A stretch of DNA of 64,000 bases, from positions 82,078 to 146,077 of IMG/VR virus record IMGVR_UViG_3300042330_000875, one strand, 5' to 3'. This stretch comes from a virus. The notes beneath the pieces were generated by a model that was not told the DNA's origin, searched no databases, and saw only the letters and a list, made by a program, of their open reading frames with translations. Positions 1,420-63,006 of this stretch are shown piece after piece (the first letter of the stretch is position 1; each line of letters opens with the position of its first letter). Position numbers and translations under genes: made by a program.

Positions 1420-1776
1420 ATGGATTTTAAATTAGCAAAAGTATTATATGAAAAAAACGAATTAACACAAGGCGTTATTATTAAAGCAAAATATACGGCA
1501 GTTGATATGGCAGGCAGGCATTCTTTTGAAACCATAGATGAATTTTTAGTAATTTATGCTTCTATTAAGGCAGAAATGTTAATTTTACATTGTAGTCATA
1601 AAAAATCAGGTATGCGAAGAAATTTAACACATGATTGTATTTTAGAAATTAATGGCATGACACCTGATAGAATTGCTGATAGTATTGATTTAACAATTGA
1701 TGGAAATGCTAAAAAAATAGGCAATAAACGTGGAAGAAAAACAAATGAAGAGCGCGCAAGGTTAGCTAATTTATAA
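1420..1776 (+). CDS. Hypothetical protein, basic C-terminus
   Basis: GGAG RBS, 118 aa ORF, KRGRK tail. Confidence 0.6.
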   Translation: MDFKLAKVLYEKNELTQGVIIKAKYTAVDMAGRHSFETIDEFLVIYASIKAEMLILHCSHKKSGMRRNLTHDCILEINGMTPDRIADSIDLTIDGNAKKIGNKRGRKTNEERARLANL

Positions 1777-2105
1777 TGTTAATTTATTATATTGATGGTG
1801 AAAAATTTTACACTGAAGATTTTGATGATATTCCTCTGCATGATATTTCTTCACCTGATGAACAAACACCCGCATTTCAAGACAGTTTAACAAGTGAAAA
1901 ACTTTGGTGTGAAAAAAATTATCGTTGGCATCGATTAACTGGACCAACATTAATTCGTCCAGATGAAACTGTGGGATTTTGGTTAAACGATAAAAAATAC
2001 CATAATGTCCGGGATTGGATTAAAGAACATCCAAATCCAGATTTATATTTCGATGCATTAGGTATGAATGAAACAGACAGAGTGTTATGGTTTTTACAAA
2101 ATTAA
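1776..2105 (+). CDS. HRLTGP-family paralog 1 (tail type A)
   Basis: YYIDGEKF/SSPDEQTPA/HRLTGP/HPNPDLYF...ETDRVLWFLQN; TAATG overlap with upstream stop. Confidence 0.85.
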   Translation: MLIYYIDGEKFYTEDFDDIPLHDISSPDEQTPAFQDSLTSEKLWCEKNYRWHRLTGPTLIRPDETVGFWLNDKKYHNVRDWIKEHPNPDLYFDALGMNETDRVLWFLQN

Positions 2106-2122
2106 TTTTTATAAAAAAGCAC

Positions 2123-2157
2123 TAGACAGAGTATAGAAAATTTTCTATACTCTGTCT
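2123..2157. promoter_or_regulatory. Sigma70-like promoter embedded in a perfect 34-bp palindrome
   Basis: AGACAGAGTATAGAAAA|TTTTCTATACTCTGTCT (2124-2157); TAGACA-N17-TATACT. Confidence 0.7.
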
Positions 2158-2181
2158 CTAATGTTGATGAAGGGAAATTAA

Positions 2182-2592
2182 ATGTCGAGAATTTTGGTTC
2201 GAGATGATCGTTGGATGGATTTCATTGAACGCAATCTTGTAGATCATGAAGCCATTGCAAATGCGCGTGTTGGCGCATGTATTGTTTTTAAAAACGAAAT
2301 TGTTTCTTTTCAAACCAATCAACTTAAAACGCATCCGCTTCAAACTAAGTTTGGCCGTAATAAGGAAGCTATTTATCTTCATGCTGAAGTGGCAAGTATT
2401 GTTGCTGCCAGCAAGCGTATTATTCATCCGAATGATTGGAAGAAAAGCACGATTTATGTTTTGCGTTTGACGAAAAACGAAGATCGTGCTATTGCCAAGC
2501 CTTGTAGTGGTTGTACTCAAGCAATTGCTGCTTATGGAATTGGTCGTGTAGTTTATACTGGGTTTGATGGTGAGACTATTGTAGTTGATTAA
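2182..2592 (+). CDS. Zn-dependent cytidine/dCMP deaminase-family protein
   Basis: HAE...PCxxC (LHAEV, KPCSGC). Confidence 0.85.
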   Translation: MSRILVRDDRWMDFIERNLVDHEAIANARVGACIVFKNEIVSFQTNQLKTHPLQTKFGRNKEAIYLHAEVASIVAASKRIIHPNDWKKSTIYVLRLTKNEDRAIAKPCSGCTQAIAAYGIGRVVYTGFDGETIVVD

Positions 2593-3110
2593 AAATCAAC
2601 TGGAACGGTTTCACTCATTATATCATTAATATATTGTGAAACAATTTGTTCTTCTGTTCCAACATAACCATTTAAACGAAGATATTCTATAAAATATTCA
2701 TTCCAAATTAATTTTAATTGTAATCCATCTAAGCCTTTTTTATTATCAAAATTACTATCTAACATTTTCATAAATGGTTCTTGTTTTAAATTAGCCAATT
2801 CTAATTCATAAGTATCTTGATCAATATCTTCGTCTTCTAATTGCCAAAGTAATTGATATTCAAATAGTTTTTTATCGTTTTTAAGAAACAATTTTATTTT
2901 TTCACGATATTGTTCTTTTGTTAATAAATTTAATTGTAAATCAAATTTTAAAATTTCTAAAGTATTATCAATAATACCCATATCATTGTTTAAAATAAAC
3001 AATTCTTTTTCTAATTCAATTCCAGAATAATAATATTCTGCTTCGGCAATTTTTCTAGTTTTGCCTTTTAATCCCCAACTTCCAGGTAATAACCAAAATG
3101 GTAATTTCAT
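2589..3110 (-). CDS. Hypothetical phage protein
   Basis: 173 aa ORF with WNEYFIEYL...GYVGTEEQIV C-terminal block. Confidence 0.55.
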   Translation of the reverse strand: MKLPFWLLPGSWGLKGKTRKIAEAEYYYSGIELEKELFILNNDMGIIDNTLEILKFDLQLNLLTKEQYREKIKLFLKNDKKLFEYQLLWQLEDEDIDQDTYELELANLKQEPFMKMLDSNFDNKKGLDGLQLKLIWNEYFIEYLRLNGYVGTEEQIVSQYINDIMSETVPVDF

Positions 3111-3120
3111 TTTTTATTCC

Positions 3121-14977: not shown

Positions 14978-15286
14978 TTATGTGTATTTTAACAGCATTT
15001 CAACTTGAAAGGCACTGTCTTGATTTGGATGATTTAAAAGCCAATCATGAATACCATAATATTGAACATTTTTTATATAAAACCAATACGTTTCATCAGG
15101 ATTAATAATTGATGGGCCATTTAGTCTATGTAATATTCTGCCTCTTTCACACCATCTTTTATATCCAGTTGATAAGATTTCAAGTGCGGGTGTATTTTCA
15201 TTTGGTGAGGAAATTTTAAACACAGGGATAATATAAGGAATTACGGTTGTGAATTTTTCACCATCAATATAATAAATATAACTCAT
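14978..15286 (-). CDS. HRLTGP-family paralog 2 (tail type B)
   Basis: YYIDGEKF, SSPNENTPA, HRLNGP, HPNQDSAFQVEMLLKYT. Confidence 0.85.
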   Translation of the reverse strand: MSYIYYIDGEKFTTVIPYIIPVFKISSPNENTPALEILSTGYKRWCERGRILHRLNGPSIINPDETYWFYIKNVQYYGIHDWLLNHPNQDSAFQVEMLLKYT

Positions 15287-16786: not shown

Positions 16787-16875
16787 TTTTATTTTCCTTC
16801 TTTAAAACTCTTGACATAAGCTAACTTGGATGTTAAAGTTTGTCAATTGAAAAAACGGAAAGAATAGAAAATTTT

Positions 16876-17217
16876 ATGAGTTTAACATATTTTATTGATG
16901 GAAATTCTAAATTAACCAAAGAATATTCCAAAGTATTATTATCAATTCCTTATTATAATGATAAAACCTTAGATAATATTAACCTTAATAGTTTATTTTT
17001 TTATTTAACTGGAAAAGAAAATATTGATGTACCAAAAAATTTTTACAATACTATTTTGTCATTTTTTGATTTAGAAGAAATTTATTTATTATATCCATTA
17101 GGTAATTTTGAAATAAAAAGTATTAATCAAGAAAATAATGTTAACTTATTTAATTTTGAAATAAAATTTACTTTTAATAATAGTACCGATGAATTACTTT
17201 ATATTTTGAGGAAATAA
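16876..17217 (+). CDS. Hypothetical protein with shared C-terminal motif
   Basis: Ends FTFNNSTDELLYILRK; ATG at 16876 preferred over TTG at 16840. Confidence 0.6.
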   Translation: MSLTYFIDGNSKLTKEYSKVLLSIPYYNDKTLDNINLNSLFFYLTGKENIDVPKNFYNTILSFFDLEEIYLLYPLGNFEIKSINQENNVNLFNFEIKFTFNNSTDELLYILRK

Positions 17218-18460: not shown

Positions 18461-18793
18461 ATGTATGTTTATTATATTGATGGTGAAAAATTTACAACCA
18501 ATAATAAAGATGAAATTCCTTGGTGGAAAATTTCATCTCCCGATGAAGACACCCCTGCTTTTGAAGATTTATCTGATGGATTTAAAGCGTGGTGTTTAAA
18601 AAATGGATTTGGGGATCGTTTAATTGGTCCTGCAAAAATTTGGTCTGATGGAAGAGAAGAATTTTGGTTAAATGACAAACGATATGAAAACGTAAAGGAA
18701 TGGATTGCAGATCATCCAAATCCTGATTTGTACTTTCACAATATTGGTATTTTTACTGAAACCGACAAAGTTCTTTGGTTTTTAAAAAATTAA
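18461..18793 (+). CDS. HRLTGP-family paralog 4 (tail A)
   Basis: Family motifs; ends ETDKVLWFLKN. Confidence 0.85.
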   Translation: MYVYYIDGEKFTTNNKDEIPWWKISSPDEDTPAFEDLSDGFKAWCLKNGFGDRLIGPAKIWSDGREEFWLNDKRYENVKEWIADHPNPDLYFHNIGIFTETDKVLWFLKN

Positions 18794-19232: not shown

Positions 19233-19538
19233 TTAATTTTTTAAATCCCAAAGAACTAATTCAAGATTGGTTGGTTCAATTTCGATTGCAATTAAATCAT
19301 GTGGATATGGATTAATAGAAGTAAAAATATCATACATTATAAGGCTATCTAATTTTATTAATTTAACAATTTTAAAATGTTTTTTAATTTCATCTAATAA
19401 ATCAATCATACTTTTATTATGAAATTTATTAGAAATTGTATTATTGATATAATCAATATCATAAGAAGTAACATTACCAACAGCTACAATTTCATCTATT
19501 AATTTTATATTTTTTCCATAATGTATATATTTTATCAT
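19233..19538 (-). CDS. Hypothetical protein with shared C-terminal motif
   Basis: Ends EPTNLELVLWDLKN. Confidence 0.6.
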   Translation of the reverse strand: MIKYIHYGKNIKLIDEIVAVGNVTSYDIDYINNTISNKFHNKSMIDLLDEIKKHFKIVKLIKLDSLIMYDIFTSINPYPHDLIAIEIEPTNLELVLWDLKN

Positions 19539-22275: not shown

Positions 22276-22587
22276 TTATGTGTATTTTAGCAACATTTCA
22301 ACCTGAAAAGCATTATCTTGATTTGGATGTGCCATTAACCAATCATAAATGTTTCTATAATATACTCCATTTAGCCAAAATTCTTTATTGCCTTTTGGAC
22401 GAATTAATGCTGGTCCGGTTAATCGATGACAAATTTGACCTTTTAAATACCAAATTTTATATTCAGAATTTAACTCTTCAATTGCTGGGACATTTTCATT
22501 TGGTGAAGAAATATTATTCCTAGGTATTTTATGCCAATTGTCCTCGGTTGTAAATTTTTCACCATCTATATAATAAATAAATGTCAT
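22276..22587 (-). CDS. HRLTGP-family paralog 5 (tail B)
   Basis: Family motifs; HPNQDNAFQVEMLLKYT. Confidence 0.85.
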   Translation of the reverse strand: MTFIYYIDGEKFTTEDNWHKIPRNNISSPNENVPAIEELNSEYKIWYLKGQICHRLTGPALIRPKGNKEFWLNGVYYRNIYDWLMAHPNQDNAFQVEMLLKYT

Positions 22588-23435
22588 TTTTGCTCCATTA
22601 TTTTTTTAGTTAGTCTTAAAATTTGTTTTACACCAAGGCCATGTTTATATATGTTATTTGTTTTAAAATTAGTTTCTTCTTTATCCAAATATATTTTATT
22701 AATTTTAACAGAAAATGTTTTTTCATAAAGGTCAACTAATTCTTCAATAGAAATATTTTCATTATTAGCCAAATCAAACGTTGTGTTTCTAATATAACTA
22801 TCCATTTCAAATTGTTTCATTAAATCATTAATATAAACGAAATTTTTTACACCAGAATTATTTTTAGGAATAAAAAATTCTTTATTTTTCAAATCTGCAT
22901 TTATTAATGTTGGGATCAATTGATTTTGATTCATTGTATCAACAAGGTTATTATAACAACCAGCAATATTATAAAGACGATAAATTTTATAATTTATTTT
23001 TTGATAAAATATTTTTAATAAGTCTTCTGCTGCTAATTTTGTTTCGCCATATGGTGATAATTTTTCTTCATAAACATAACATGTACTTGGTAAAATAAAA
23101 TCAATTTTTTTATTTTTAAATTTGTTTAAAAAATTAAACAATTGATAATAATGATTGTCCCAAGTTTCTTTTGGATTTAAAATAGAATTTTTTACTGAAG
23201 GATTGCCTGCAAAATGCAAAATTTTATATAAATTTTTTATTTTATTTGTTTTTTCAATAAATCTGTGATCGTCAAAACTCATTTGAAAAAATTCATCTAA
23301 AGAATTTTTAACAAAATGATTTTTTGGTTCATTTAAATCACAACCAATTATTTTATAATTTTGTTTTTTAAAATAATAAGCGGCATGTGATCCAATGTAT
23401 CCTGAACAGCCTGTTATAATGATAGTTTTATGCAT
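22584..23435 (-). CDS. NAD-dependent epimerase/dehydratase (GalE-like SDR)
   Basis: ITGCSGYIGSH, HFAG, SPYGETK (YxxxK), RLYNIAG. Confidence 0.85.
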   Translation of the reverse strand: MHKTIIITGCSGYIGSHAAYYFKKQNYKIIGCDLNEPKNHFVKNSLDEFFQMSFDDHRFIEKTNKIKNLYKILHFAGNPSVKNSILNPKETWDNHYYQLFNFLNKFKNKKIDFILPSTCYVYEEKLSPYGETKLAAEDLLKIFYQKINYKIYRLYNIAGCYNNLVDTMNQNQLIPTLINADLKNKEFFIPKNNSGVKNFVYINDLMKQFEMDSYIRNTTFDLANNENISIEELVDLYEKTFSVKINKIYLDKEETNFKTNNIYKHGLGVKQILRLTKKIMEQK

Positions 23436-23745
23436 TTTGTAATAAGAATAAAACTTTATCTGTTTTAGATCGCCAAAATACTTTACATGTAATTCCTGGA
23501 TTTTTACAAATGTAAAATTTTACTTTGCCATATTTTTGTAATTTTTTAATTTTGTTAGCGTATAAAGAATTATACATTTCTGAATAATAATTATGTTGTT
23601 TAATGTATCTTACAAGCCATTTATTATTATAATAAACAAAGTAATTATCATTAGAAAATTTTATTTTGTTATGAATAATAATTTCATCATTAACAATATC
23701 AAAATAAGAATAATAGTTTGGTTTAAATTTTAATTTATATTTCAT
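23428..23745 (-). CDS. Hypothetical protein with shared C-terminal motif
   Basis: Ends FWRSKTDKVLFLLQNA; paralog of 23749-24090. Confidence 0.6.
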   Translation of the reverse strand: MKYKLKFKPNYYSYFDIVNDEIIIHNKIKFSNDNYFVYYNNKWLVRYIKQHNYYSEMYNSLYANKIKKLQKYGKVKFYICKNPGITCKVFWRSKTDKVLFLLQNA

Positions 23746-23748
23746 ATT

Positions 23749-24090
23749 TTAACCTTGTTGCAATAAAAATAAAACTTTATCTGTTTTAGATCGCCAAAAT
23801 ATTTTAGCATAACAAACATGAGGAAATTCATCTTCAATTACTTTTTGATATAATTTTATTTTTCCATGTTTCTTACATAATTCTGTATTTATTAATAAAA
23901 CATTAAATATCTCTTCAAAATCAATCTTGTTATGAGAATAACATAATAAAATTTTCTTTAGCAATGTATTATAATGTTGTATATTTTTAAATGGTAAATC
24001 TATAATCTTATTATATTGAATATTTCGAGAATATTCTGTTGTAACAAATGAAAAACCAGAATATAATTTTCTCTTTATTTTATATTTCAT
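23749..24090 (-). CDS. Hypothetical protein with shared C-terminal motif
   Basis: Ends FWRSKTDKVLFLLQQG. Confidence 0.6.
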   Translation of the reverse strand: MKYKIKRKLYSGFSFVTTEYSRNIQYNKIIDLPFKNIQHYNTLLKKILLCYSHNKIDFEEIFNVLLINTELCKKHGKIKLYQKVIEDEFPHVCYAKIFWRSKTDKVLFLLQQG

Positions 24091-24710: not shown

Positions 24711-25427
24711 CTATGTGTTTTTTAATTTGTAAAGTATTTCATCTGTTTCATTATCAAATTTATAAACTAATCCATTGGCTTTATATTGATAAGTATTATT
24801 TTGATATTCAATTAATGATAAAGAAATATACATATGTTTATCAAAACTGAAAAAATCATTTTGGACAATATCCATAACCGGTTTTGGAATATGTGGTAAA
24901 TTTAAATTTAATAATGGTTCAAAACTGTTTAATTTTGTTGAAGTTTCAAATATTTCTTTATGTTTAAATATCCGCATTATGCATTTATTTTGTGAAATAT
25001 TCAGTCTTTTAACTGGTATGTTTAAAATTTCATGTGTATTATTAAAATTATATTCATCAATCATATTATTATGAAATGAAACAATAAATTCATTTTTAAT
25101 TTCTTCAAAATCAGTAATTTTTTCTTTATAATGTTCATTAGTACAAAAAACAATAGGATTTTTTTCTTTTAATTTTGATAATTTTTCAAAAATAAAATTT
25201 AATTTATTGGTATAAGAATGAGTGTGTAATTCTGGACGATAACGATAGTTATAATTAACCCTTAATGAAATTAAATTTGGATGAATTGTAACATTTTGAT
25301 CATATCCTGTATCTTCTCGATATAAATTATCATTATCATGTAATGTTCCGCCGCCAATTACAAAAATAGTATCGGGATTTAAAACCAAATCTTCTTCAGT
25401 AATTAATTTATTTGTTTCATAAATCAT
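24711..25427 (-). CDS. Hypothetical protein with shared C-terminal motif
   Basis: Ends YKFDNETDEILYKLKNT. Confidence 0.55.
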   Translation of the reverse strand: MIYETNKLITEEDLVLNPDTIFVIGGGTLHDNDNLYREDTGYDQNVTIHPNLISLRVNYNYRYRPELHTHSYTNKLNFIFEKLSKLKEKNPIVFCTNEHYKEKITDFEEIKNEFIVSFHNNMIDEYNFNNTHEILNIPVKRLNISQNKCIMRIFKHKEIFETSTKLNSFEPLLNLNLPHIPKPVMDIVQNDFFSFDKHMYISLSLIEYQNNTYQYKANGLVYKFDNETDEILYKLKNT

Positions 25428-28781: not shown

Positions 28782-29077
28782 ATATAAAAGAAAAACTATT
28801 AGAATTAGATTATAATTTATTTTCTGATCCAAATTTAAGAATTATTGAATATATGGGCGATGATACATATGAAATGTTTTCATTAGATGAATTAACAAAT
28901 AGTAATTATTCTGTGTTGGGTTATTATAATGATCATATTTTTGGTTTAGTTGCGGAACATTTAAAAGCATTAAAAATTAAACATTATGTTTTTAAATATA
29001 AAAATTTGCCCCGTCCGTTTATATTTTATTGTTTTTTAACAAATACCGATGAAATTTTATTGAGTTTAATGAAATGA
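28778..29077 (+). CDS. Hypothetical protein with shared C-terminal motif (family 2)
   Basis: Ends FYCFLTNTDEILLSLMK. Confidence 0.6.
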   Translation: MNIKEKLLELDYNLFSDPNLRIIEYMGDDTYEMFSLDELTNSNYSVLGYYNDHIFGLVAEHLKALKIKHYVFKYKNLPRPFIFYCFLTNTDEILLSLMK

Positions 29078-29448
29078 ATAATTTAGAAAAATTTTTTAAT
29101 AGTGATAATAAGTTTAAAAAACATTTATCAAATCCTGATTTAGTTATTATTGATTTGATTGATCAATTAGAAGATACATTTACCAATGAACCATTAACAT
29201 TTTATCGTTATCATGAACTAGTTGATACTTTTGATGAAAATAAATTTTATAATTTTGGCAAACCTTGTTCAAAATTTGATATATTTGACAGTATTAGTAA
29301 TAGTAAAACTATACAACAATTTTTAAAAATGCATAATAAAAAAATTTATTATAAAACATTTAGAAAAGAAATTGATAAATGTTATCCTAAAGTTTTTTAT
29401 ACATTTTTAACTGATACTGAATTAGCCATTTGGGATTTGATGAAATAA
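29074..29448 (+). CDS. Hypothetical protein with shared C-terminal motif (family 2)
   Basis: Ends FYTFLTDTELAIWDLMK. Confidence 0.6.
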   Translation: MNNLEKFFNSDNKFKKHLSNPDLVIIDLIDQLEDTFTNEPLTFYRYHELVDTFDENKFYNFGKPCSKFDIFDSISNSKTIQQFLKMHNKKIYYKTFRKEIDKCYPKVFYTFLTDTELAIWDLMK

Positions 29449-34215: not shown

Positions 34216-34219
34216 AAAA

Positions 34220-34538: not shown

Positions 34539-34790
34539 ATGTTTTACGAAGTAATTTTTCATCCAACTCAAATTGAACTAAAATCAATTTCTCCAACTGA
34601 TTTTTATTTTTATCCTTATGCATTATTCAATATAACGCATCAAAAACATTTAATAAATCAATATAGAAAAATCGATTATGATTTAAGTTTTCTTAATCAA
34701 TCAATTTCTTTATGGTTTTCTAAAAAAGGCAATTCAGTAATTTATTGGTTAAATCCAACTGATGAAGTTTTATGGAAATTAAAAAATTGA
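34539..34790 (+). CDS. Hypothetical protein with shared C-terminal motif
   Basis: Ends YWLNPTDEVLWKLKN. Confidence 0.6.
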   Translation: MFYEVIFHPTQIELKSISPTDFYFYPYALFNITHQKHLINQYRKIDYDLSFLNQSISLWFSKKGNSVIYWLNPTDEVLWKLKN

Positions 34791-36138: not shown

Positions 36139-37382
36139 TGTCAACAATTCAATGTTTTTTATGTGGTAAAATACAAAATGATAATAAAGAAATATTTGTT
36201 TGTAACGAATCATCTGAAAGTCCAGTATATATATGCGAAACATGTGTAACAACGGCCAATCAAGCAATTCAAGCATCAAAAGAAACCAAACACGAAAATA
36301 AGCAAGAAATTAGTGAACAAACCGATGAAATCGATGAATTAGAAGAAGATGATTTTCCTTATCCAAATGAAATTAAAGAATTTTTAGATGAATATGTTTG
36401 TGGACAAGAAGAAGCTAAAAAAACCTTATCAGTTGCTTTATTCAATCATCACAATAGAATTCGATCTTTAATGATGGGCCAAGAAACAGAAATTGAGAAA
36501 TCAAATGTATTATTATTAGGCCCAAGTGGTTCAGGAAAAACTTATTTGTTAAAAACATTATCTCGTATGTTGGATTTGCCTTTTGTTCATGTTGATGCTA
36601 CTTCATTTACCGAAGCTGGTTATGTAGGTGAAGATGTAGAAAGTATCATTAATAAACTTTATCAAGAAGCAGGTGGTGATGCTGGATTAGCATCTTTAGG
36701 TATTGTTTATATTGATGAAATTGATAAAAAAGCAAAAAAATCATCTGATAATATTGTTTCAAAAGATATTGGTGGTGAAGGTGTTCAACAATCATTATTG
36801 AAATTAATTGAAGGAACTGCTGTAAACGTTCACATGGGTAAAGGAAAAATGCCTCAAGGACCACAAGCGGTTGTACATACTGATAATATATTATTTGTAT
36901 TTGGTGGTGCATTTGTTGGGTTAAAGAAAATTATTGAACGTAGAATTAATAAAGGTAATATTGGTTTTAACCAAACTAAAGAAGAAATAACAACCGATAA
37001 AATTCAAATTGAAGATTTATATACTTTTGGATTAATACCAGAATTAGTCGGAAGAATTCCGGTTATTGCTGAATTAAAAGCATTAAATGAAAGTGAATTA
37101 AAAAATATTTTAACTAAACCAAAAAATTGTTTAGTTGATCAATATAAAGCTATCTTTGAAATTCACGATTTAAAATTAAAATTTACTGATAATGCATTAA
37201 CTTTAATTGCAAAAGAAGCAATTAAAACAAACACAGGGGCTAGAAGTTTACGTAGAATTATGGAAAAAATTTTAGAACCTATTTTATATGATTTACAAAA
37301 CATTGTTGACAAAGGCTTTAAAACTGTTATAGTCAACGAAGAAACAATTACAAACTTTAAACCTATTTTAAAACGGAGATAA
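36138..37382 (+). CDS. clpX: ClpX AAA+ unfoldase
   Basis: Zn finger CFLC/CETC, GQEEAKK, KSNVLLLGPSGSGKT, TEAGYVGEDVE, DEIDK, GEGVQQSLLK, IGF loop, TGARSLR. Confidence 0.95.
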   Translation: MSTIQCFLCGKIQNDNKEIFVCNESSESPVYICETCVTTANQAIQASKETKHENKQEISEQTDEIDELEEDDFPYPNEIKEFLDEYVCGQEEAKKTLSVALFNHHNRIRSLMMGQETEIEKSNVLLLGPSGSGKTYLLKTLSRMLDLPFVHVDATSFTEAGYVGEDVESIINKLYQEAGGDAGLASLGIVYIDEIDKKAKKSSDNIVSKDIGGEGVQQSLLKLIEGTAVNVHMGKGKMPQGPQAVVHTDNILFVFGGAFVGLKKIIERRINKGNIGFNQTKEEITTDKIQIEDLYTFGLIPELVGRIPVIAELKALNESELKNILTKPKNCLVDQYKAIFEIHDLKLKFTDNALTLIAKEAIKTNTGARSLRRIMEKILEPILYDLQNIVDKGFKTVIVNEETITNFKPILKRR

Positions 37383-37902: not shown

Positions 37903-38238
37903 TTGGCTTATATTTATTATGTTGATGGTGAAAAATTTACAACCGATGATTACGATGAAGTTCCTAAGTATGATGTTTCTTCACCTGATGAAAATACGCC
38001 AGCTTATGAAAGTTTAGAAATTGGAACAAAAGTTTGGTGTAAAAAAGGTTGGCGTTTGTATAGATTAATTGGTCCCGCCGTTGTTTATATAAATGGTGAT
38101 TATAATTTTTGGTTAGATGGAAAATATTATGGAAAAGATATCAATGCTTGGTTAAAAAATCATCCAAATCCAGATATTTATTTCGATGCAATTGGTTTAA
38201 GTGAAACCGAACGAGTTTTGTGGTTTTTGCAAAATTAA
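37903..38238 (+). CDS. HRLTGP-family paralog 9 (tail A)
   Basis: Abuts the infC stop (TAA-TTG); ends ETERVLWFLQN. Confidence 0.85.
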   Translation: MAYIYYVDGEKFTTDDYDEVPKYDVSSPDENTPAYESLEIGTKVWCKKGWRLYRLIGPAVVYINGDYNFWLDGKYYGKDINAWLKNHPNPDIYFDAIGLSETERVLWFLQN

Positions 38239-38584: not shown

Positions 38585-39778
38585 ATGTTTCCCGATAATC
38601 TTACCCTTGATGAAGTAACTCAAGTAACCAATGATTTTAATAATCAATTGGGTGTTACTGCGTTTTTGCGTGTTGTAAAAGAAGGATATATTGTTTTCAA
38701 TTATGCGTTTCAAACTCCCGATTTGTTCCCAAGGATTAATACAAAAGATGTTTTAGAAAATCGTCGTCGTGCAATTTTGCGTGAATGTCGCGGTTTAACC
38801 TTTGATCTTAATGGTAATTTGATTGCACGTAAATTTGAAAAGTTTTTTAATATGGATCAAATGCCTGAAACGCATCGGTTAGATTTTTCTCGTAATCATC
38901 TTATCATGGATAAGTTAGATGGTAGTATGATTGCGCCTATGTTGGTTGATAACAAAATTATTTGGTCAACTAAAATGGGCGATACCGATATTGCTAAAAT
39001 TGTTGATAATTTTGTTCAAGATAAACCGAACTATGCGAGTTTTGTATTGGATCAAATTAAATTAAATCGCACTGTTCTTTTTGAATTTGTCAGTCGTGAA
39101 AATAAAGTTGTAGTAGATTATCCAGAAGATAATCTAATTATGACTGCTATTCGTGATAATATTACTGGCGATTATATTGCGCGTAATATTCAAGAAATGT
39201 GGGCAAAAGAATATAATATTCCTATTGTAAATGTGTACAATGGAAAAAATATTCATGAATTAGTAACCCAAGCAAAAGATAATTTTGAAGGTTACGTTAT
39301 TTGGTTTCTGGATAACGATCAAAAAGTAAAAATCAAGCTAGATTGGTATCTTGTTCGACATCGCGCAATCGATGCTTTAAGTTCAGAAAAGCGAGTTTTA
39401 GAATTAATCGTTGCTGATCAAGTAGATGATTCAATTGCTTTACTTGACGAAAATGATCAAAAAATTCTAATTGATTTTCAAAAGAAATTTTGGAAAAATG
39501 TCGATGATTATTCAAAAAATCTTGAGATTTCAGTAAAAGAACTTTACGAAAATTGCAAAAAAATTGACAATTCTCGTCGTTATTTTGCTGAACAAGTTTC
39601 AAAAGAAAATCGTTTAACTCAAGCTGCTTATTTTGGTTATTTTGAAAATCAATTGTTTAATTTCCAAGATTTTGTTGTTAAGACGATTAAAAAGAAATTA
39701 AACAATAAAAATAATATTGAGCAAGTTCGGGAAATTTTTAAAATTGTTTGGTCAAGGAATACAACTATTGATGAGTGA
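38585..39778 (+). CDS. RNA ligase 1 (T4 Rnl1/gp63-like)
   Basis: ECRGL, KFEKFFN, motif I KLDGSM, LFEF, EGYVI, KVKIK. Confidence 0.9.
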   Translation: MFPDNLTLDEVTQVTNDFNNQLGVTAFLRVVKEGYIVFNYAFQTPDLFPRINTKDVLENRRRAILRECRGLTFDLNGNLIARKFEKFFNMDQMPETHRLDFSRNHLIMDKLDGSMIAPMLVDNKIIWSTKMGDTDIAKIVDNFVQDKPNYASFVLDQIKLNRTVLFEFVSRENKVVVDYPEDNLIMTAIRDNITGDYIARNIQEMWAKEYNIPIVNVYNGKNIHELVTQAKDNFEGYVIWFLDNDQKVKIKLDWYLVRHRAIDALSSEKRVLELIVADQVDDSIALLDENDQKILIDFQKKFWKNVDDYSKNLEISVKELYENCKKIDNSRRYFAEQVSKENRLTQAAYFGYFENQLFNFQDFVVKTIKKKLNNKNNIEQVREIFKIVWSRNTTIDE

Positions 39779-40106
39779 TATTGAAAAAACAATTGAGTGG
39801 TTATTAGAAAACGAAGATTTTAGAAAAATTTTACAATTAGAAAATCTTCGTTTTTTAGATTTAAAAAATATTGATACTAAAGATATATGTTTAAATTTAT
39901 ATAAATTAGATGAATATTTTAATTTTATCCGAGAATTTGGTTCTTTTCCTTATAATTTAATTTTTATTAAAGATTATAATAAAATAAATTTATTCGGAAT
40001 TGAATATAAACATTTTCATTTTAATCATGTTAATAATTATGTTATAATTTATTGTCAATTGGATAATACACAAGAAATTTTATGGAGTTTACATGATGGA
40101 CAGTGA
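39771..40106 (+). CDS. Hypothetical protein with shared C-terminal motif (family 2)
   Basis: ATG at 39771; ends YCQLDNTQEILWSLHDGQ. Confidence 0.55.
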   Translation: MSDIEKTIEWLLENEDFRKILQLENLRFLDLKNIDTKDICLNLYKLDEYFNFIREFGSFPYNLIFIKDYNKINLFGIEYKHFHFNHVNNYVIIYCQLDNTQEILWSLHDGQ

Positions 40107-40410
40107 AACAATTGAGAAAATTTTTAATAATCCAAAAATAATAGAATTAAATAAACCTGATATTTATTTTTTAGACATGCAAATTCTTCCAAATAATATT
40201 TTATTATTTAATTTTGATGAATATAAACAACATTTACTTAATGATACTTTAATTGGTAATGTATGGTTTTTAGATGAATTAGTCATTCATCTAAAAAATA
40301 ATAATTTTAAACCAGAAATTTTAGAAATTGTTATAGATGATTTAATATTTTATGTAGTTTATAGTGAAATATCAAATACTGATTATTGTTTATGGAGATT
40401 AAAATCATGA
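40093..40410 (+). CDS. Hypothetical protein with shared C-terminal motif (family 2)
   Basis: Ends YSEISNTDYCLWRLKS. Confidence 0.6.
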   Translation: MMDSETIEKIFNNPKIIELNKPDIYFLDMQILPNNILLFNFDEYKQHLLNDTLIGNVWFLDELVIHLKNNNFKPEILEIVIDDLIFYVVYSEISNTDYCLWRLKS

Positions 40411-45695: not shown

Positions 45696-45980
45696 TTGAT
45701 GAAAAAGATACCTATTTACATTAGTAATAATTTTGTAGTATATAATAAGAAACATAATACAAATTTTAATAAAGGATGGTTTGATTTTGAAAATATTAAA
45801 ATGATTCATCCTTCTGGCGTACAATCAGATTATGCTGATAAATTTAATAATGTATTAGATGATTTAAGAACATATGGTATTTTAACATTTGAAAGTACAG
45901 AATTAGATAGACATGTAGGATATTTTATGCTAGAGTTTTTTGATGAAACAAATGAAGTTTTATTTTATTTAAAATATTAA
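45696..45980 (+). CDS. Hypothetical protein with shared C-terminal motif
   Basis: Ends LEFFDETNEVLFYLKY. Confidence 0.6.
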   Translation: MMKKIPIYISNNFVVYNKKHNTNFNKGWFDFENIKMIHPSGVQSDYADKFNNVLDDLRTYGILTFESTELDRHVGYFMLEFFDETNEVLFYLKY

Positions 45981-46745: not shown

Positions 46746-47078
46746 ATGAGATATATTTATTATATTGATGGTGAAAAATTTACAACTGAGAATAAAAATA
46801 GTATTTCTTTCAAAGACATATCGTCTTTAAATGAAAGTACACCCGCTTTTGAAGATTTATCAACTGGTCATAAAATTTGGATGTTAAAAGGAAGAATAAG
46901 GCATCGTTTAACAGGACCTGCTAATAAAAATTATCATTCAAAAGAATTTTACTTAAATGGAAAATTCTACCAAAACGCAAAGTCTTGGTTAAAAGATCAC
47001 CCAAATCCAGATTTATATTTTAATGCCATTGGAGTTTTTACCGAAACCGATAAAATTCTTTGGTATTTGCAGAATTGA
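46746..47078 (+). CDS. HRLTGP-family paralog 10 (tail A)
   Basis: Family motifs; abuts upstream stop. Confidence 0.85.
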   Translation: MRYIYYIDGEKFTTENKNSISFKDISSLNESTPAFEDLSTGHKIWMLKGRIRHRLTGPANKNYHSKEFYLNGKFYQNAKSWLKDHPNPDLYFNAIGVFTETDKILWYLQN

Positions 47079-47087: not shown

Positions 47088-47420
47088 ATGAGATACATTT
47101 ATTATATTGATGGTGAAAAATTCAAAACTAATTCAATGAATGAAAAAACACAATTTAAAATTTCTTCATTTGATGAAAATACACCTGCTTTTGAAGATTT
47201 AATAACTGGACAAAAATTATGGTGTAATAAAGGATTAATTTTGCATCGCTTAACTGGCCCGGCTGACATTTTTTATTCTTTAAATATTTTTTTCTTAAAT
47301 GGAAAACGTTATGAAACCATAAAAGATTGGTTAAAAGATCATCCCGAACCAGATTTATATTTTCACAATATTGGCGTTTTTACTGAAACCGATAAAGTTC
47401 TTTGGTACTTACAAAATTAA
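47088..47420 (+). CDS. HRLTGP-family paralog 11 (tail A)
   Basis: Family motifs; tandem with paralog 10. Confidence 0.85.
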   Translation: MRYIYYIDGEKFKTNSMNEKTQFKISSFDENTPAFEDLITGQKLWCNKGLILHRLTGPADIFYSLNIFFLNGKRYETIKDWLKDHPEPDLYFHNIGVFTETDKVLWYLQN

Positions 47421-47483: not shown

Positions 47484-47810
47484 ATGAGAATATATTATAT
47501 TGATGGTATAAAACATATAAAAAATGATTATGGAAAAATTCCATTTGAAATCGTTTCTTCTCCTGATGAACAAACACCCGCAATTGAAACAACCTTTGAC
47601 CTTAAAGTTTGGTGTAAAAAAGGACTTATTTGGCATCGTTTAACTGGCCCTGCTAGAATATTTTCTGATGGGAAAGAAGAATATTGGATTGATAATATTT
47701 ATTATCCAACTATAAGAGAATGGATTACAGATCATCCAAATCCAGATTTATACTTTGATGCAATTGGTTTAAATGAAACCGATAAAGTTCTTTGGTACTT
47801 ACAAAATTAA
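47484..47810 (+). CDS. HRLTGP-family paralog 12 (tail A)
   Basis: Family motifs; AGGAG RBS; TTGACA promoter upstream. Confidence 0.85.
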   Translation: MRIYYIDGIKHIKNDYGKIPFEIVSSPDEQTPAIETTFDLKVWCKKGLIWHRLTGPARIFSDGKEEYWIDNIYYPTIREWITDHPNPDLYFDAIGLNETDKVLWYLQN

Positions 47811-47819: not shown

Positions 47820-48665
47820 ATGTTAGGAAGTACAATTCATATTCAAAATTATCCTGCGTTTTTCATATCTTATGATGAACCCAATGCTGATGATAATTTT
47901 AAAGCAATTAAATCTTTAGTACCTAATATTAATCGAGTGCATGGTATAAAAGGTATTCATAATGCACATAAAAAATGTGCAGATCAAGCGGATGATTGGT
48001 TTTGGACCGTTGATGGTGATAATTATCCTTTAGATCAATTACAACACGCGCATGTTATTTTAGACAACCCAAAACAATTATTTTGTATTCATAGTTTTAG
48101 GACAATTAATGATATAACTGGATTAATTTATGGAAATGGAAGTGTTAAACTGTGGCGAAAACAATTTTTAAATAAAGTTTCACATGAAACAACAACTGAT
48201 TTTTTTTATAATAATTCTTATTGGATTTGTTCTGATATTTTAGCTATTACAAAATCTGCCAGTTCAGATTATCATGCTTTTAGAAGTGCGTATCGTGAAG
48301 TTGCAAAATTAACATTAACACCAGATGGTAATTTACAATCTAAATTAAATTTAAATGATTTAGGTGATAATGGAATAAGAATAAAATTATGGTTAACAAT
48401 GGGAAATCATTTACAATATGGAAAATTTTCTTTATTGGGTGCTCATGCTGCTTTAACCGATTTTTATATTAATAATAAAGATATATTATTGATTAATGAT
48501 TATGATCGTTTATTGGTTATTTTTGAATATTGGGCCGGTAAAAATATTCCAGTTGAAAATTCTGAAAAATTATTAAACTGTAAATTACCAATATTAGATT
48601 CAAAAACTTCTTTATTTATTAGAAATTGCCAATTTAAACCAACTTATAATGGATTAATGAAGTGA
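47820..48665 (+). CDS. Putative glycosyltransferase (GT-A-like)
   Basis: FISYDEPNA, RVHGIKG..NAHK, FWTVDGDN (DxD), YGNGSVKLW, AFRSAYRE. Confidence 0.6.
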   Translation: MLGSTIHIQNYPAFFISYDEPNADDNFKAIKSLVPNINRVHGIKGIHNAHKKCADQADDWFWTVDGDNYPLDQLQHAHVILDNPKQLFCIHSFRTINDITGLIYGNGSVKLWRKQFLNKVSHETTTDFFYNNSYWICSDILAITKSASSDYHAFRSAYREVAKLTLTPDGNLQSKLNLNDLGDNGIRIKLWLTMGNHLQYGKFSLLGAHAALTDFYINNKDILLINDYDRLLVIFEYWAGKNIPVENSEKLLNCKLPILDSKTSLFIRNCQFKPTYNGLMK

Positions 48666-48997
48666 AATATATTTATTATATTGATGGTGAAAAATTTACA
48701 ACTGATAATATTAACGACATTCCTTGGGAAGAATTATCGTCACCAAATGAAAAAACGCCTGCTTTTGAAAACTTAGAAAATGATCATAAGAGATGGTATA
48801 ATATAGGTGGTATTCATCATCGGTTAACTGGACCAGCAGTAATTACGGGTGACAAAAAAGAACAATTTTGGTTATATGATAAACGCTATTACACTGTTAA
48901 AGAATGGATTAATGAACATCCAAATCCCGATCTTTATTTTGATGCCATTGGAGTTTTTACAGAAACTGATAAAGTCCTGTGGTTTTTACAAAATTAA
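48662..48997 (+). CDS. HRLTGP-family paralog 13 (tail A)
   Basis: GTGA overlap with upstream stop; family motifs. Confidence 0.85.
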   Translation: MKYIYYIDGEKFTTDNINDIPWEELSSPNEKTPAFENLENDHKRWYNIGGIHHRLTGPAVITGDKKEQFWLYDKRYYTVKEWINEHPNPDLYFDAIGVFTETDKVLWFLQN

Positions 48998-50142: not shown

Positions 50143-50478
50143 ATGACATTAATTTATTATATCGATGGTAAAAAATTTATAGGAAATAATTATAAAGATT
50201 TTGAGTGGAAAAAAATTAGTTCTTTAAATGAAGAAATACCAGCGTTAGAAGATTTAAAAACAGGTTTTAAATGTTGGTGCTTAAAAGGATTTATTCGTTA
50301 TCGTTTAACTGGTCCCGCAGTAATTTTTCCAGATAATAGAATACAATATTGGTTGTTTAGAAAACATTATAGTAATAATGTAAATGATTGGCTTAAAGAA
50401 CATCCAAATCCTGATCTGTACTTCGATGCAATTGAGATGAATGAAACAGATCGTATTCTTTGGTACTTACAAAATTAA
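50143..50478 (+). CDS. HRLTGP-family paralog 14 (tail A)
   Basis: Family motifs; ends ETDRILWYLQN. Confidence 0.85.
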   Translation: MTLIYYIDGKKFIGNNYKDFEWKKISSLNEEIPALEDLKTGFKCWCLKGFIRYRLTGPAVIFPDNRIQYWLFRKHYSNNVNDWLKEHPNPDLYFDAIEMNETDRILWYLQN

Positions 50479-56544: not shown

Positions 56545-56895
56545 ATGATAATAGAATATTGGACTACAACAGGTTTTAAACGAAGAATAGTTAAAAATCA
56601 ATTTTGGAATGAGTATGTACTTTGGAATAGGTTACACTCGCCAGATGAAAATACACCTGCTATAATACATCCGCTAAATGGTATAAAATTTTATTATAAA
56701 AATGGCAAAAAACATCGCTTAACTGGTCCCGCTCTTTTATGGGAAAGATATTCAAACGAAGAGTTTTGGTTAGATGGAAAATATTATAAAACTATAAAAG
56801 AATGGATTAACAATCATCCAAATCCAGATTTATATTTTAACACCATTGGAATTTTTACCGAAACCGATAAAGTTATTTGGTATTTAAAAAATTAA
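56545..56895 (+). CDS. HRLTGP-family paralog 15 (divergent N-terminus, tail A)
   Basis: LHSPDENTPA, HRLTGPA, ETDKVIWYLKN. Confidence 0.85.
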   Translation: MIIEYWTTTGFKRRIVKNQFWNEYVLWNRLHSPDENTPAIIHPLNGIKFYYKNGKKHRLTGPALLWERYSNEEFWLDGKYYKTIKEWINNHPNPDLYFNTIGIFTETDKVIWYLKN

Positions 56896-56904: not shown

Positions 56905-57213
56905 ATGTTTATTTATTACGTTGATGGTAAAAAATTCACAACTGATAATGAAGATGACATTCCTTGGCTGGATATTTCTTCACCAGATGAAGAAATTCCT
57001 GCTTATGAAAATTTATCAAATGGCTTTAAATCTTGGTGCTTAAAAGGAGATATCTGGCATCGTTTAATTGGACCATCGGAAATATTTAGTGATGGCGCTA
57101 AATGGTTTTGTTTAAATGATAAATGTTATTTTGAAAATATTCATGCTTGATTACAAGAACACCCAAATCAAACAAATGCTTTTCAAATAGAAATGCTTTT
57201 AAAATATACATGA
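56905..57213 (+). pseudogene. HRLTGP-family paralog 16 with in-frame TGA at a conserved Trp (tail B)
   Basis: ENIHA*LQEHPNQTNAFQIEMLLKYT*; TGA at 57148-57150 where paralogs have TGG. Confidence 0.8.
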
Positions 57214-57227
57214 AAGGAAAAAATAAG

Positions 57228-57611
57228 ATGATTATTTACAGAACAAAAGATCGAACATACACTAATGATTATTTTAACGATTGTTTATACAAAAAAATCC
57301 GTAATAAATTACATTCGCCAGATAATAATACGCCTGCTGAAGAACATTCAATTGGTAGTAAAACATGGTATAAAAATGGCAAAGTTCATCGAGATAATGA
57401 TTTACCTGCCTTTATTGGTTGCACAGGTATTCAACAATATTTTCAACATGGAGTATTACATAGAGAAAATGGACCTGCCGAAATTCAACCATGTGGGATA
57501 AATTTATTTTATTTAAATGGAAAATATTATCAAAACATTCATTCTTGGTTGAAAGCGCATCCAAATCAAGATAAAGCATTTCAAGTTGAAATGCTTTTAA
57601 AATACACTTGA
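57228..57611 (+). CDS. HRLTGP-family paralog 17 (extra HRxxxPA repeat, tail B)
   Basis: LHSPDNNTPA, HRDNDLPA, HRENGPA, HPNQDKAFQVEMLLKYT; ATG at 57228. Confidence 0.8.
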   Translation: MIIYRTKDRTYTNDYFNDCLYKKIRNKLHSPDNNTPAEEHSIGSKTWYKNGKVHRDNDLPAFIGCTGIQQYFQHGVLHRENGPAEIQPCGINLFYLNGKYYQNIHSWLKAHPNQDKAFQVEMLLKYT

Positions 57612-60825: not shown

Positions 60826-60856
60826 ATGAATTCAGATTTCTATTAATAGTTAATGT

Positions 60857-60888
60857 AAAAAAGGGGAGAATTAATTCTCCCCTTTTTT
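60857..60888. terminator. Bidirectional terminator
   Basis: AAAAAAGGGGAGAATTAATTCTCCCCTTTTTT. Confidence 0.8.
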
Positions 60889-61642
60889 ATTTTGCGTAAA
60901 TTTTTAAAACTTCATCAATAACGGGATGACGTTGAATGTCTTTATTACTAAATTCAACAAATGAAATCATATCTGATTTATATCGTTTTAAACGTTCAAT
61001 AAAGTCTTTTAAACCATTTGATGCACGATTACGATCATGTTGTTCTAAATCGCCTGTGATAATCAATTTAGAGCCTTCACCAATACGTGTACAAAGCATC
61101 TTCATTTGATCGACAGTCATATTTTGGGCTTCATCACCAATGATAACTGCATTTACTAAGTTTCGGCCGCGAGCGTATGCTAGAGGGACATATTCAATAG
61201 TTTTATTTTCTAACATATGTTGAACCGTAGCAACATCGTAATAATTTCTGGCAACATCCATAAGTGGAATCATCCAAGGTTCCATTTTTTGGTTTAAATC
61301 ACCAGGAAGAAAGCCGTGTTCTTCTTCAACACTAACTGCTGGTCTTGTTAAAAAAATTCTTTCGATTTTATTATCTTGTAATTGTTTTAATGCATAACTC
61401 ATAGCTAACAGCGTTTTTCCACAACCCGCCGGTCCAGTAACAAAAACAATATGTTTATTATCGTCATAAAGTTCACAAAGTAAATCTTCTTGTGTTTCAG
61501 TTCTTGGTACTATTTGAATTTTTTTCATTCGAGTTGAACTTTGTTGTGGGTTAAAATCAACTACATTATTTCTTGTATTATTGCGTGTATTGTTACGATC
61601 TTTTCGTGGGTTTTCACGAATTGCTCTTTTGGCTCTTGACAT
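60887..61642 (-). CDS. phoH: PhoH-family ATPase
   Basis: GPAGCGKT, TRPAV, GFLPGDL..KM.PW, PLAYARGRN, DEAQN, TRIGEGSK, GDLEQ, RHP. Confidence 0.95.
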   Translation of the reverse strand: MSRAKRAIRENPRKDRNNTRNNTRNNVVDFNPQQSSTRMKKIQIVPRTETQEDLLCELYDDNKHIVFVTGPAGCGKTLLAMSYALKQLQDNKIERIFLTRPAVSVEEEHGFLPGDLNQKMEPWMIPLMDVARNYYDVATVQHMLENKTIEYVPLAYARGRNLVNAVIIGDEAQNMTVDQMKMLCTRIGEGSKLIITGDLEQHDRNRASNGLKDFIERLKRYKSDMISFVEFSNKDIQRHPVIDEVLKIYAK

Positions 61643-61694
61643 TAATATCTCCTAAAAGGTTGCCATGTGGGATAGTTTTCATTATCAATAGTAT

Positions 61695-62276
61695 TTAGTT
61701 TTCTTGTTCCCATTCCCCAATCTGTTTTACTATTTCTTCCCAATTATCCTTTCCATAAAAATTCTCACAATCTCGATTATAAGGCATCCATAAACCAGTT
61801 GTTTTAATACCTAAATCAATGGCACAACTTATATGTTGTGGGTTATCTTCAATAAATGCACAAGGTTTAAATCTTTTTAATAATGGGTGCTTTTCTTTAT
61901 CGCCAACAAAACAATAACCATCAAAAGGTGATTCGCCAAAATGTTTTTCAAAATTTTTTAATCTACTAGAAAAAATTTTAGATGTATTTGGCACAGCACT
62001 AATAGCGACCAAATGATAATCCATTGATTTCAAAGAATTAATTCCTTCTAATGCGCCTGGAACTAATTCTAAATCAGCAAACATTTCACTATTATTAAAT
62101 CGATCAACTAAGATTTTTGAATCTATATCAATTTCATAAGCGAGATTAACCCAATATGCATGTTTTAAATCAGCAATTTTTTTATAATTTAATTCTTCAA
62201 GATAATTTTGAAATTTATCAATCCAATTGAGAACGATTTCGTCAATATCACACAGAATTAGTTTGGTTTTGCTCAT
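61695..62276 (-). CDS. HAD-superfamily 5'(3')-deoxyribonucleotidase-like protein
   Basis: LCDIDEIV motif I, PGALEGI, FIEDN, PYNR, NWEEI. Confidence 0.8.
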   Translation of the reverse strand: MSKTKLILCDIDEIVLNWIDKFQNYLEELNYKKIADLKHAYWVNLAYEIDIDSKILVDRFNNSEMFADLELVPGALEGINSLKSMDYHLVAISAVPNTSKIFSSRLKNFEKHFGESPFDGYCFVGDKEKHPLLKRFKPCAFIEDNPQHISCAIDLGIKTTGLWMPYNRDCENFYGKDNWEEIVKQIGEWEQEN

Positions 62277-62655
62277 ATCTGCTTGCTCTTTTCATAATTT
62301 CTTCTAATACAGTTGCATAATCGCCTGGATGTAATTTATTCCATTCGACTAAAATATCACACATATATTTTGTATATTTGCTACAATAAAAATCTAACAC
62401 ATTTTCTTTTTCTATTTGATAACGAGTTGTTACAATTCTCATTTCTAAAATATCAATAATTGTTGAACATTCAGTAAGGTCTTTTTTATCAATACGTTCA
62501 ACTACTGAATATCTTTCTTTTAATTCCCAACGATTTTTTGTATCATTTTCATTTTTAGGTAATTTATCCCAATCTTTAATATGTGTATTAGAACCTTTAG
62601 TTGGGTTCCAAGAAGTTTGAATTTTCATAAAAGGTCTATTTCTTAAATATTTCAT
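62248..62655 (-). CDS. Hypothetical protein
   Basis: 135 aa, AAGGA RBS. Confidence 0.55.
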   Translation of the reverse strand: MKYLRNRPFMKIQTSWNPTKGSNTHIKDWDKLPKNENDTKNRWELKERYSVVERIDKKDLTECSTIIDILEMRIVTTRYQIEKENVLDFYCSKYTKYMCDILVEWNKLHPGDYATVLEEIMKRASRYEQNQTNSV

Positions 62656-62673
62656 TTTTCTTTCCTTAATTTT

Positions 62674-63006
62674 TTAATTTTTCAAATACCAAAGAACTTT
62701 ATCAGTTTCAGTTATAACGCCAATTGATTGAAAATACAAATCTGGATTAGGATGATCTTTAATCCATTCACGAATATTTTCATAACATTTACCATTTAAA
62801 TAAAATTCTTTAAATCCATTAGAATAGAATTTTGCTGGACCTTTTAACCGATGCCAACATAAATTTGTTAAACACCAAAATTTATATCCTGATTCTAAAT
62901 TTTCAAAAGCAGGAATTTCTTCATTGGGTGAAGAAATATCAAGCTTAGAAACTATAGTATAATCTTCCGTTGTAAATTTTTCACCATCAATGTAATAAAC
63001 AATCAT
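62674..63006 (-). CDS. HRLTGP-family paralog 18 (tail A)
   Basis: ATGA overlap with the clamp-loader stop; ends ETDKVLWYLKN. Confidence 0.85.
   Translation of the reverse strand: MIVYYIDGEKFTTEDYTIVSKLDISSPNEEIPAFENLESGYKFWCLTNLCWHRLKGPAKFYSNGFKEFYLNGKCYENIREWIKDHPNPDLYFQSIGVITETDKVLWYLKN

Follow-up and report, generated by a model that had tools for sequence, protein, structure and literature searches.

The window analysed here, i.e., the right-hand 64 kilobases (kb) of the 146,077-base IMG/VR virus record IMGVR_UViG_3300042330_000875 (26% G+C), encodes small, mostly otherwise unrelated proteins that end in the same pattern, N-x-T-[DE]-x-[VI]-L-[YWF]-x-L-[QK]-N, with the stop nearly always 0-1 residues further on. 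We refer to the ten residues T0-[DE]1-x-[VI]3-L4-[YWF]5-x-L7-[QK]8-N9, which the stop follows, as the tag. It is carried in the window by 12 paralogs of a family named HRLTGP and by 12 other open reading frames (ORFs), and in the record as a whole by about 40 of the 244 ORFs, i.e., approximately one gene in six. CheckV rates the record as 45% complete and puts the whole genome at about 320 kb, which indicates a jumbo phage with a genome in the range of 300 kb.

There are 41 HRLTGP paralogs in the record. About half of them are of type A and end in ...HPNPDLYFxAIGxxETDKVLW[FY]LQN, while the remaining ones, of type B, end in ...HPNQDNAFQVEMLLKYT or close variants. The type-A paralogs of the window, all of which are tagged, are as follows (strand in brackets; endings are given for the first five).

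1776..2105 (+), HRLTGP type-A paralog ending in ...NETDRVLWFLQN
18461..18793 (+), HRLTGP type-A paralog ending in ...TETDKVLWFLKN
30722..31048 (+), HRLTGP type-A paralog ending in ...NETERVLWFLQN
33838..34215 (+), HRLTGP type-A paralog ending in ...NETDRVLWFLQK
37903..38238 (+), HRLTGP type-A paralog ending in ...SETERVLWFLQN
46746..47078 (+), HRLTGP type-A paralog, the copy folded with AlphaFold2
47088..47420 (+), HRLTGP type-A paralog
47484..47810 (+), HRLTGP type-A paralog
48662..48997 (+), HRLTGP type-A paralog
50143..50478 (+), HRLTGP type-A paralog
56545..56895 (+), HRLTGP type-A paralog
62674..63006 (-), HRLTGP type-A paralog, directly 3' of the clamp-loader gene

The 12 other tagged ORFs, called non-family here with respect to HRLTGP, are listed next with their lengths in amino acids (aa); three of them belong to a family, F2, that is described below.

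16840..17217 (+), 125 aa, singleton, ending in NNSTDELLYILRK
19233..19538 (-), 101 aa, with a weaker variant of the tag, ending in PTNLELVLWDLKN
23428..23745 (-), 105 aa, paralog of 23749
23749..24090 (-), 113 aa, paralog of 23428
24711..25427 (-), 238 aa
28778..29077 (+), 99 aa, ending in TNTDEILLSLMK
29074..29448 (+), 124 aa, ending in TDTELAIWDLMK
29958..30284 (+), 108 aa, family F2 (by hhalign)
34539..34790 (+), 83 aa, singleton, ending in NPTDEVLWKLKN
39771..40106 (+; alternative start 39717), family F2, ending in NTQEILWSLHDGQ
40093..40410 (+), family F2, the copy folded with AlphaFold2
45696..45980 (+), 94 aa, singleton, ending in DETNEVLFYLKY

Both sets had been reported in an initial annotation of this DNA, and each of the 12 type-A paralogs and 12 non-family ORFs that it named was found in its place with the ending described.

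Our results confirmed that the motif is real, C-terminal and far beyond chance. A strict version of it, T[DE]xx[LIVM][WFYL]x[LM] in the last 14 residues, was present in 13 of the 203 non-HRLTGP ORFs of the 146-kb record, where residue shuffles averaged 0.09 and never exceeded 2, and its per-position rate at the C-termini of these ORFs was 77 times the internal rate. To avoid circularity, we also built a scoring matrix from nine non-family tags of related contigs, none of which came from the record. At 10 bits or more, this matrix yielded 15 C-terminal and 5 internal matches in the non-family ORFs of the record, two of the five "internal" ones sitting 10-11 residues from the end, and the scan brought in extra tagged ORFs outside the window. 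When all six frames of the window were scanned, 3 of 26 stop-adjacent matches fell in junk frames.

When each sequence group is represented once (n = 25), the information content of the motif is approximately 27 bits. L7 was found in 25/25 representatives, T0 in 21/25, and Y, W or F at position 5 in 21/25; the protein ended exactly at N9 in 17/25, and one or two extra residues are tolerated. The tag also occurs on further, different ORFs of related contigs. No tagged ORF had a match in Pfam or PHROGs, and we found no published description of such a tag in the literature. As initially noted, none of the recognisable enzymes annotated in the record, including ClpP and a 703-aa double-AAA protein, carries the tag; the annotation, whether of recognisable genes, enzymes or shell genes, covers part of the ORFs.

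We compared the bodies of the tagged proteins, with tails removed, by phmmer, Smith-Waterman Z-scores and hhalign. Family F2 consists of the window ORFs 39771 and 40093, two ORFs outside the window and one on a related contig, and it is joined by window ORF 29958 with an hhalign score of 26.8 over 92 columns (P = 3e-4). A further family forms a four-gene tandem array outside the window. For 16840, 19233, 24711, 28778, 29074, 34539 and 45696, none of the three methods gave a body link; 28778 and 29074 scored marginally, and not significantly, above 40 control ORFs in comparison with F2, and may be distant members of that family. The 12 listed ORFs accordingly reduce to approximately 8 sequence groups in the window, and there are ten or more in the record. 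The different bodies of the earlier statement are therefore not 12 families: the three ORFs 29958, 39771 and 40093 are paralogs of one another, and 23428 is paired with 23749. Short local matches that seemed to relate tagged bodies to untagged ORFs of the relatives proved meaningless.

A profile search with F2 returned 13 proteins only, all from the same kind of metagenome. One F2 paralog, G000 2151-2480, has the N-terminal half in common with F2 and is untagged; full-length matches outside the line of this paralog keep the tag. One ortholog of 24711, which is 82% identical, has also retained the tag. In an ESM Atlas model of low confidence (predicted local distance difference test, pLDDT, 0.43), the N-terminal half of 24711 was weakly DUF7831-like, and this protein may be a duplicated DUF7831 domain that acquired a tagged C-terminal half. 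The adjoining gene (24277-24702, minus strand, next to 24711-25427 on the same strand) encodes a DUF7831 protein (E = 1e-28). For 34539, a RuvA_N neighbour of its ESM Atlas model, likewise of low confidence (pLDDT 0.47), is only a hint.

The HRLTGP body belongs to the HRxDGPA-type hairpin-repeat superfamily and contains its repeat unit, W-x-x-G-x-x-HR-x-x-GPA. The profile matched 6,706 cluster representatives at E <= 0.001, many of them with 5-18 repeats. These matches cover profile positions ~29-85 only, and the tail positions were matched solely by short close relatives, so the tag is an add-on in the HRLTGP family. The same body bears either a type-A or a type-B tail; the intact type-B paralogs of the window, which have no tag, are the following.

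14978..15286 (-), HRLTGP type-B paralog with the alternative ending FQVEMLLKYT
22276..22587 (-), HRLTGP type-B paralog
34178..34528 (+), HRLTGP type-B paralog
57147..57611 (+), HRLTGP type-B paralog with an extra repeat

Because the invariant Phe of the two tails aligns, type B is a one-helix alternative to the two-helix type-A ending and not a variant of the tag. The QVEMLLKY ending was found on HRLTGP-type bodies only, and a matrix scan placed the type-B tail on no unrelated ORF. Hence, of the second tag variant, Q[VI]EMLLKY[TS], that had been proposed, the six endings are indeed in the window, but two of them (17502-17525 and 57190-57213) lie in broken gene fragments and the ending is specific to the family; the ORF at 21825, said to end similarly, did not rank in the scan. 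In the broken copies, the N-terminal part (17219-17341 and 56905-57150) is out of frame with, or apart from, the type-B tail (17502-17525 and 57190-57213, respectively), and these copies look like decaying paralogs. Several strong G+C-rich hairpin terminators lie 3' of HRLTGP genes, e.g., at 18792-18819. Our search found the HRLTGP family in no cultured phage.

At the DNA level, the Thr codons of the tag are divided among ACC, ACT and ACA, with 5 of each when one HRLTGP-family member is left out and 6, 5 and 5 when it is included, and the DNA 3' of the stop is unrelated among tagged ORFs. Since synonymous codons vary and downstream DNA differs, selection acts on the peptide, as the initial annotation had suggested. 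ACC is nevertheless over-used, occurring at T0 in 5/15 non-family tags compared to 11% genome-wide (p = 0.02). In the HRLTGP family, ACC, which is a rare Thr codon, occurs in 10/18 tags. The codon often stands in AAT-ACC-GAT, and Leu4 of the HRLTGP tags favours CTT. We rejected a DNA-level origin of the non-family tails, whether as a conserved site, as a promoter or terminator overlapping the 3' end, or by recent capture of an HRLTGP 3' end, because codons, flanks and the residues at the x positions differ; the tails may nonetheless have an ancient common origin. The tag was better preserved than the body both among type-A paralogs (column identity of 0.85 vs 0.62) and in eight ortholog pairs (89% vs 81% identity).

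Structural models were obtained with AlphaFold2 for two tagged proteins. The HRLTGP-A protein (46746 copy), modelled from a 69-sequence alignment with a mean pLDDT of 95.5, is predicted to form three beta hairpins followed by helices at residues 78-83, 88-94 and 100-109, the last of which is the tag (block pLDDT about 93). The F2 protein (40093 copy; 14 sequences, mean pLDDT 84.9, predicted template-modelling score 0.78) is predicted to be an alpha/beta sandwich of the order a-a-b-b-a-a-b-b-a, in which the tag is the helix at residues 95-104 and the last two blocks have pLDDT values of 85 and 76. Neither model had a convincing neighbour in the PDB by Foldseek or VIA-align (best E values 1.5 and 0.28, best Z 3.6). 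The models thus suggest two different folds, in each of which the tag is an ordered terminal helix. In 20 independent proteins, the nine residues before the tag were hydrophobic and strand-like (0.57 vs 0.39 in controls, P < 2e-4), and Gly, Pro, Ser and polar linker residues were depleted among them (P = 2e-4). Because the helix is ordered in the models and is preceded by a strand-like stretch poor in linker residues, the tag is probably not a loose, linker-borne peptide. It resembles short linear motifs in recurring on unrelated proteins beyond chance, and it lacks their disordered or linker location. The portable peptide of the initial annotation was borne out as an add-on in the HRLTGP family, but not as a loose tail.

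When the residue frequencies were placed on a helical wheel by our own arithmetic, T0, V/I3, L4 and L7 fell within about 100 degrees of each other. D/E1, the aromatic residue at 5, Q/K8 and N9 were on the neighbouring face; positions 2 and 6, which are variable, lay opposite.

Operon-like runs in the window hold the tagged genes, behind recurrent intergenic TTGACA-N17-TATATT sites. Those in gaps ahead of small-gene runs are given below.

19218, 22166 and 26646 (-), TTGACA-17-TATATT promoter-like elements, near-identical, with 11/12 matches
31052, 33061, 38242, 49022 and 49598 (+), TTGACA-17-TATATT promoter-like elements, likewise near-identical, with 11/12 matches

Because these sites precede the runs, early transcription of the tagged genes by host RNA polymerase is suggested, as an indication only; the total of promoter-like sites was not above that in shuffles. 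The clamp loader encoded in the window is of the T4 type, and its closest cultured relatives belong to the Pseudomonas jumbo phage PA5oct group (43% identity). Other recognisable genes of the window encode a T4 Rnl1-type RNA ligase, RNase H, a metallophosphatase, an HNH endonuclease, an epimerase and a kinase-like P-loop protein. The gene for the thymidylate synthase ThyX (44216-45667, plus strand) is split by an intein (Intein_splicing, E = 3e-14). Two paralogs of ~600 aa, at 10821-12608 (minus strand) and 52985-54799 (plus strand), combine a GH113 glycoside hydrolase with RTX calcium-binding repeats and DUF5648, and the 8-12 kb segment around them has 40% G+C vs ~26% elsewhere. The adjacent small ORFs 57608-57859 and 57882-58100 (both on the plus strand) have a common tail, ...INLMKTLKL[DE]K[LF]S[FC], and are probably a paralog pair. 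Megablast of 5 kb of the record returned no match, and a metagenome scan for further relatives gave chance pattern matches only.

We propose, with a probability of roughly 0.45, that the tag is a folded constant handle, i.e., a shared surface that links many variable accessory proteins to one common partner. The tag closes many small early proteins as a capped amphipathic helix, their final element of secondary structure. It is attached to several unrelated bodies, and protein-level selection keeps it more strictly than the bodies themselves. According to our proposal, T0 and positions 3, 4 and 7 would make up the face that packs on the protein's own body, whereas D1, the aromatic residue at 5, Q/K8 and N9 would form a second, outward face, through which many variable accessory proteins would meet a single partner. 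Our data show the motif, its C-terminal position, its selection, its occurrence on two predicted folds and its modular gain or loss within the HRLTGP family, whereas we infer the existence of this common partner: the same residues are kept in different surroundings and the tag is present or absent as a module, so a shared outward function appears to be the best single explanation.

Several observations weigh against this proposal, and on the whole the interpretation offered in the initial annotation, a docking or sorting peptide for one shared hub, is partly supported. Although two different AlphaFold2 folds bear the tag, the helix is ordered and packed in both models with no linker before it, which would fit an ordinary structural element equally well. 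T0/D1 and N9 are classical N-cap and C-cap residues, and part of the polar conservation thus needs no partner. By eye, most of the small tagged ORFs appear to consist of a long helix, a hairpin and the tag helix, like the second half of F2; these proteins could share one fold that is hidden from sequence methods, in which case independent acquisitions of the tag would be fewer than the sequence searches suggest. The excess of ACC at T0 is a small hint that the tails may go back to shared descent or gene conversion. Moreover, the partner of the handle is one that we only infer.

A tag that is purely structural would accommodate most of these points. It would be a short, strongly capped terminal helix that stabilises small proteins and has no common partner. 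Such a helix would descend from one or two superfamilies that diverge fast, or else would have been passed on by recombination at 3' ends. The high pLDDT of the helix in the HRLTGP-A and F2 models, the hydrophobic strand-like stretch that replaces a linker, and the capping residues at both ends (T/D at the start, N at the end) are all consistent with this explanation. The same is true of the finding that several of the listed "different bodies" were paralogs and of the ACC excess, which suggests some common descent. However, the surroundings of the helix differ, being a three-helix mini-bundle in one case and a sheet in the other, and yet the same tag residues are kept; the aromatic residue at 5 and Q/K8 are conserved though they are expected to lie off the packing face; and the tail is better conserved than the bodies. 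Furthermore, HRLTGP type-B paralogs and one F2 paralog occur without the tag. We consider a purely structural tag less likely than the handle, but a strong rival to it.

We also considered the tag as a signal for the phage Clp machinery, either a degron by which early proteins are removed at a set time or a tether that docks variable adaptors, e.g., the HRLTGP library, on an unfoldase. C-terminal degrons and adaptor tethers are established for ClpXP, with ssrA and SspB as examples, and the phage encodes a complete set of components: ClpP (G000 51090-51698, minus strand), a ClpA/B-like protein, a 703-aa double-AAA protein and, in the window, the following gene, which is a candidate reader only.

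36138..37382 (+), ClpX-like unfoldase with an N-terminal Cys4 zinc domain and an IGF loop (by sequence)

In addition, a tagged ORF of 97 aa lies directly upstream of clpP, at a distance of 14 bases, but gene neighbourhood alone is weak evidence. Although a cognate ClpXP is thus present, the tag does not have the exposed, unstructured, non-polar C-terminus of an ssrA-like degron: its last residues are polar (Q/K-N), unlike ssrA-type endings, the helix looks folded in, and a free carboxylate at a fixed place is not needed, given that the motif may be followed by one or two further residues. A Clp signal is therefore very unlikely in our view. With regard to these genes, the ClpA/B-like two-ring ATPase has its C-terminal half at 2-1393 (plus strand) of the window, the double-AAA protein (G000 41233-43344, minus strand) has an unassigned N-domain of ~250 aa, and an IF3 homolog with both domains (E about 1e-20) is encoded at 37384-37902 (plus strand), directly 3' of the ClpX-like gene.

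Another explanation, which we rate as highly improbable, is that the tag represents the form which the T4-type sliding-clamp-binding motif has taken in this lineage, and that it holds accessory proteins on the DNA-bound phage clamp. The T4 proteins gp43, gp55 and gp33 bind the sliding clamp through hydrophobic and acidic C-termini that are very much alike and can be exchanged for one another (PMC2988020), and published motifs of the T4 family, NTLDFLL, PSLDFLYE and EGLDFLFD (PMC7892883, Suppl. Table 2), resemble N-T-D-E-I-L-[LYW]. The phage also encodes a T4-type clamp loader. However, the T4 motifs sit on linkers and the tag does not, the tag runs four conserved residues further, and its approximately 40 clients, none of which is a replication or transcription protein, are unlike any known clamp toolbelt. 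Neither the record nor four related fragments yielded DNA polymerase B, a clamp (PF02916 or T4 gp45), DNA ligase or gp55, and gp33 is likewise absent from them. Next to the clamp loader, a 272-aa gene was considered as a clamp and rejected, as it is terminase-nuclease-like instead; a candidate of 222 aa lies further upstream, on another contig.

The least probable explanation is self-association of the tagged proteins (as homo- or hetero-oligomers) or membrane association like that of the C-terminal helices of MinD and FtsA. In its favour, the tag is an amphipathic terminal helix with an interfacial aromatic residue, and MinD-type targeting helices likewise span 8-12 residues at the very C-terminus. 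However, the net charge of the tag is acidic or neutral; the tag has a T-D/E start, at most one Lys and no basic flank, and is predicted to pack on its own domain.

If the tag is a constant handle, its reader would place much of the "dark matter" of one jumbo phage in a single pathway, and the constant end on a hypervariable binder family would be explained. The marked ORFs, roughly 40 of 244 in under half of the genome, all encode small, early proteins of unknown function without a Pfam or PHROG family. A bolder extension of the handle proposal, which we regard as a long shot, is that large phages run a proteome-wide address system, in which a genome-specific C-terminal helix would mark at least a sixth of the small early proteins for one reader; the marked set would here include a hypervariable 40-copy binder library, and a possible reader would be the Clp unfoldase-protease that the phage itself encodes. 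The tagged binders would then constitute a home-made system for targeted degradation or timed turnover, and a general, undescribed layer of phage cell biology would come into view. To our knowledge, shared terminal hub motifs in phages are known for a handful of clients only, e.g., in the clamp-binding tails of T4 and in its capsid targeting sequence. Should the tag be a structural cap only, it would still be a marker of lineage-specific gene families, and it would caution that a motif common to "unrelated" ORFans can mean hidden common ancestry.

Compared with known systems, the tag looks like a shared terminal docking motif, with a real chance that it is purely structural. The cargo-loading peptides of encapsulins and the encapsulation peptides of microcompartments are short terminal peptides on unrelated cargo that are read by one shell, and those of microcompartments are amphipathic helices. 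However, these peptides are linker-borne, which the tag is not, and a shell gene accompanies them; the annotated ORFs of the record include no shell gene of an encapsulin or microcompartment. The capsid targeting sequence of T4, found on the internal proteins IPI-III and on Alt, resembles the tag as a shared address on otherwise unrelated small proteins, but it is N-terminal and is cleaved by the prohead protease, whereas the tag is C-terminal and has no recognisable protease site.

The closest precedent is the set of T4 clamp-binding motifs, which are C-terminal in gp43, gp33 and gp55 and internal in DNA ligase (PMC2988020, PMC7892883). Like the tag, they are short, hydrophobic-acidic, mostly C-terminal motifs on unrelated proteins of a T4-like phage; those of T4 are interchangeable and are read by one hub. 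The T4 core N-T-L-D-F-L-L is similar to N-T-D-E-I-L-L/Y/W of the tag. More generally, the core of the sliding-clamp-binding motif, [ST/G]-L-D-F-L-[LYF], and that of the tag, T-[DE]-x-[VI]-L-[YWF], are similar in character and position and not identical, and the tag continues with x-L-[QK]-N. The clients in T4 number three or four, all in replication or transcription, and have their motifs on flexible linkers, whereas the tag has approximately 40 clients and a longer helix that is ordered in both models and preceded by strand-like residues in place of a linker.

Finally, a constant helical module on variable binders is found in the PRANC/F-box-like C-terminus of poxvirus ankyrin proteins and in the BC-box helix of SOCS proteins, VHL and HIV Vif. 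These modules recruit eukaryotic ubiquitin ligases and have no sequence relationship to the tag, so the likeness would be a functional analogy only, and we know of no such ubiquitin-ligase machinery in bacteria. The BC-box is a docking helix of ~10 residues, amphipathic and with a Ser/Thr start, that also occurs on unrelated proteins. As with PRANC and BC-box proteins, diversified repeat-type binders, here the hairpin repeats of HRLTGP, would be combined with a small constant C-terminal helical module.

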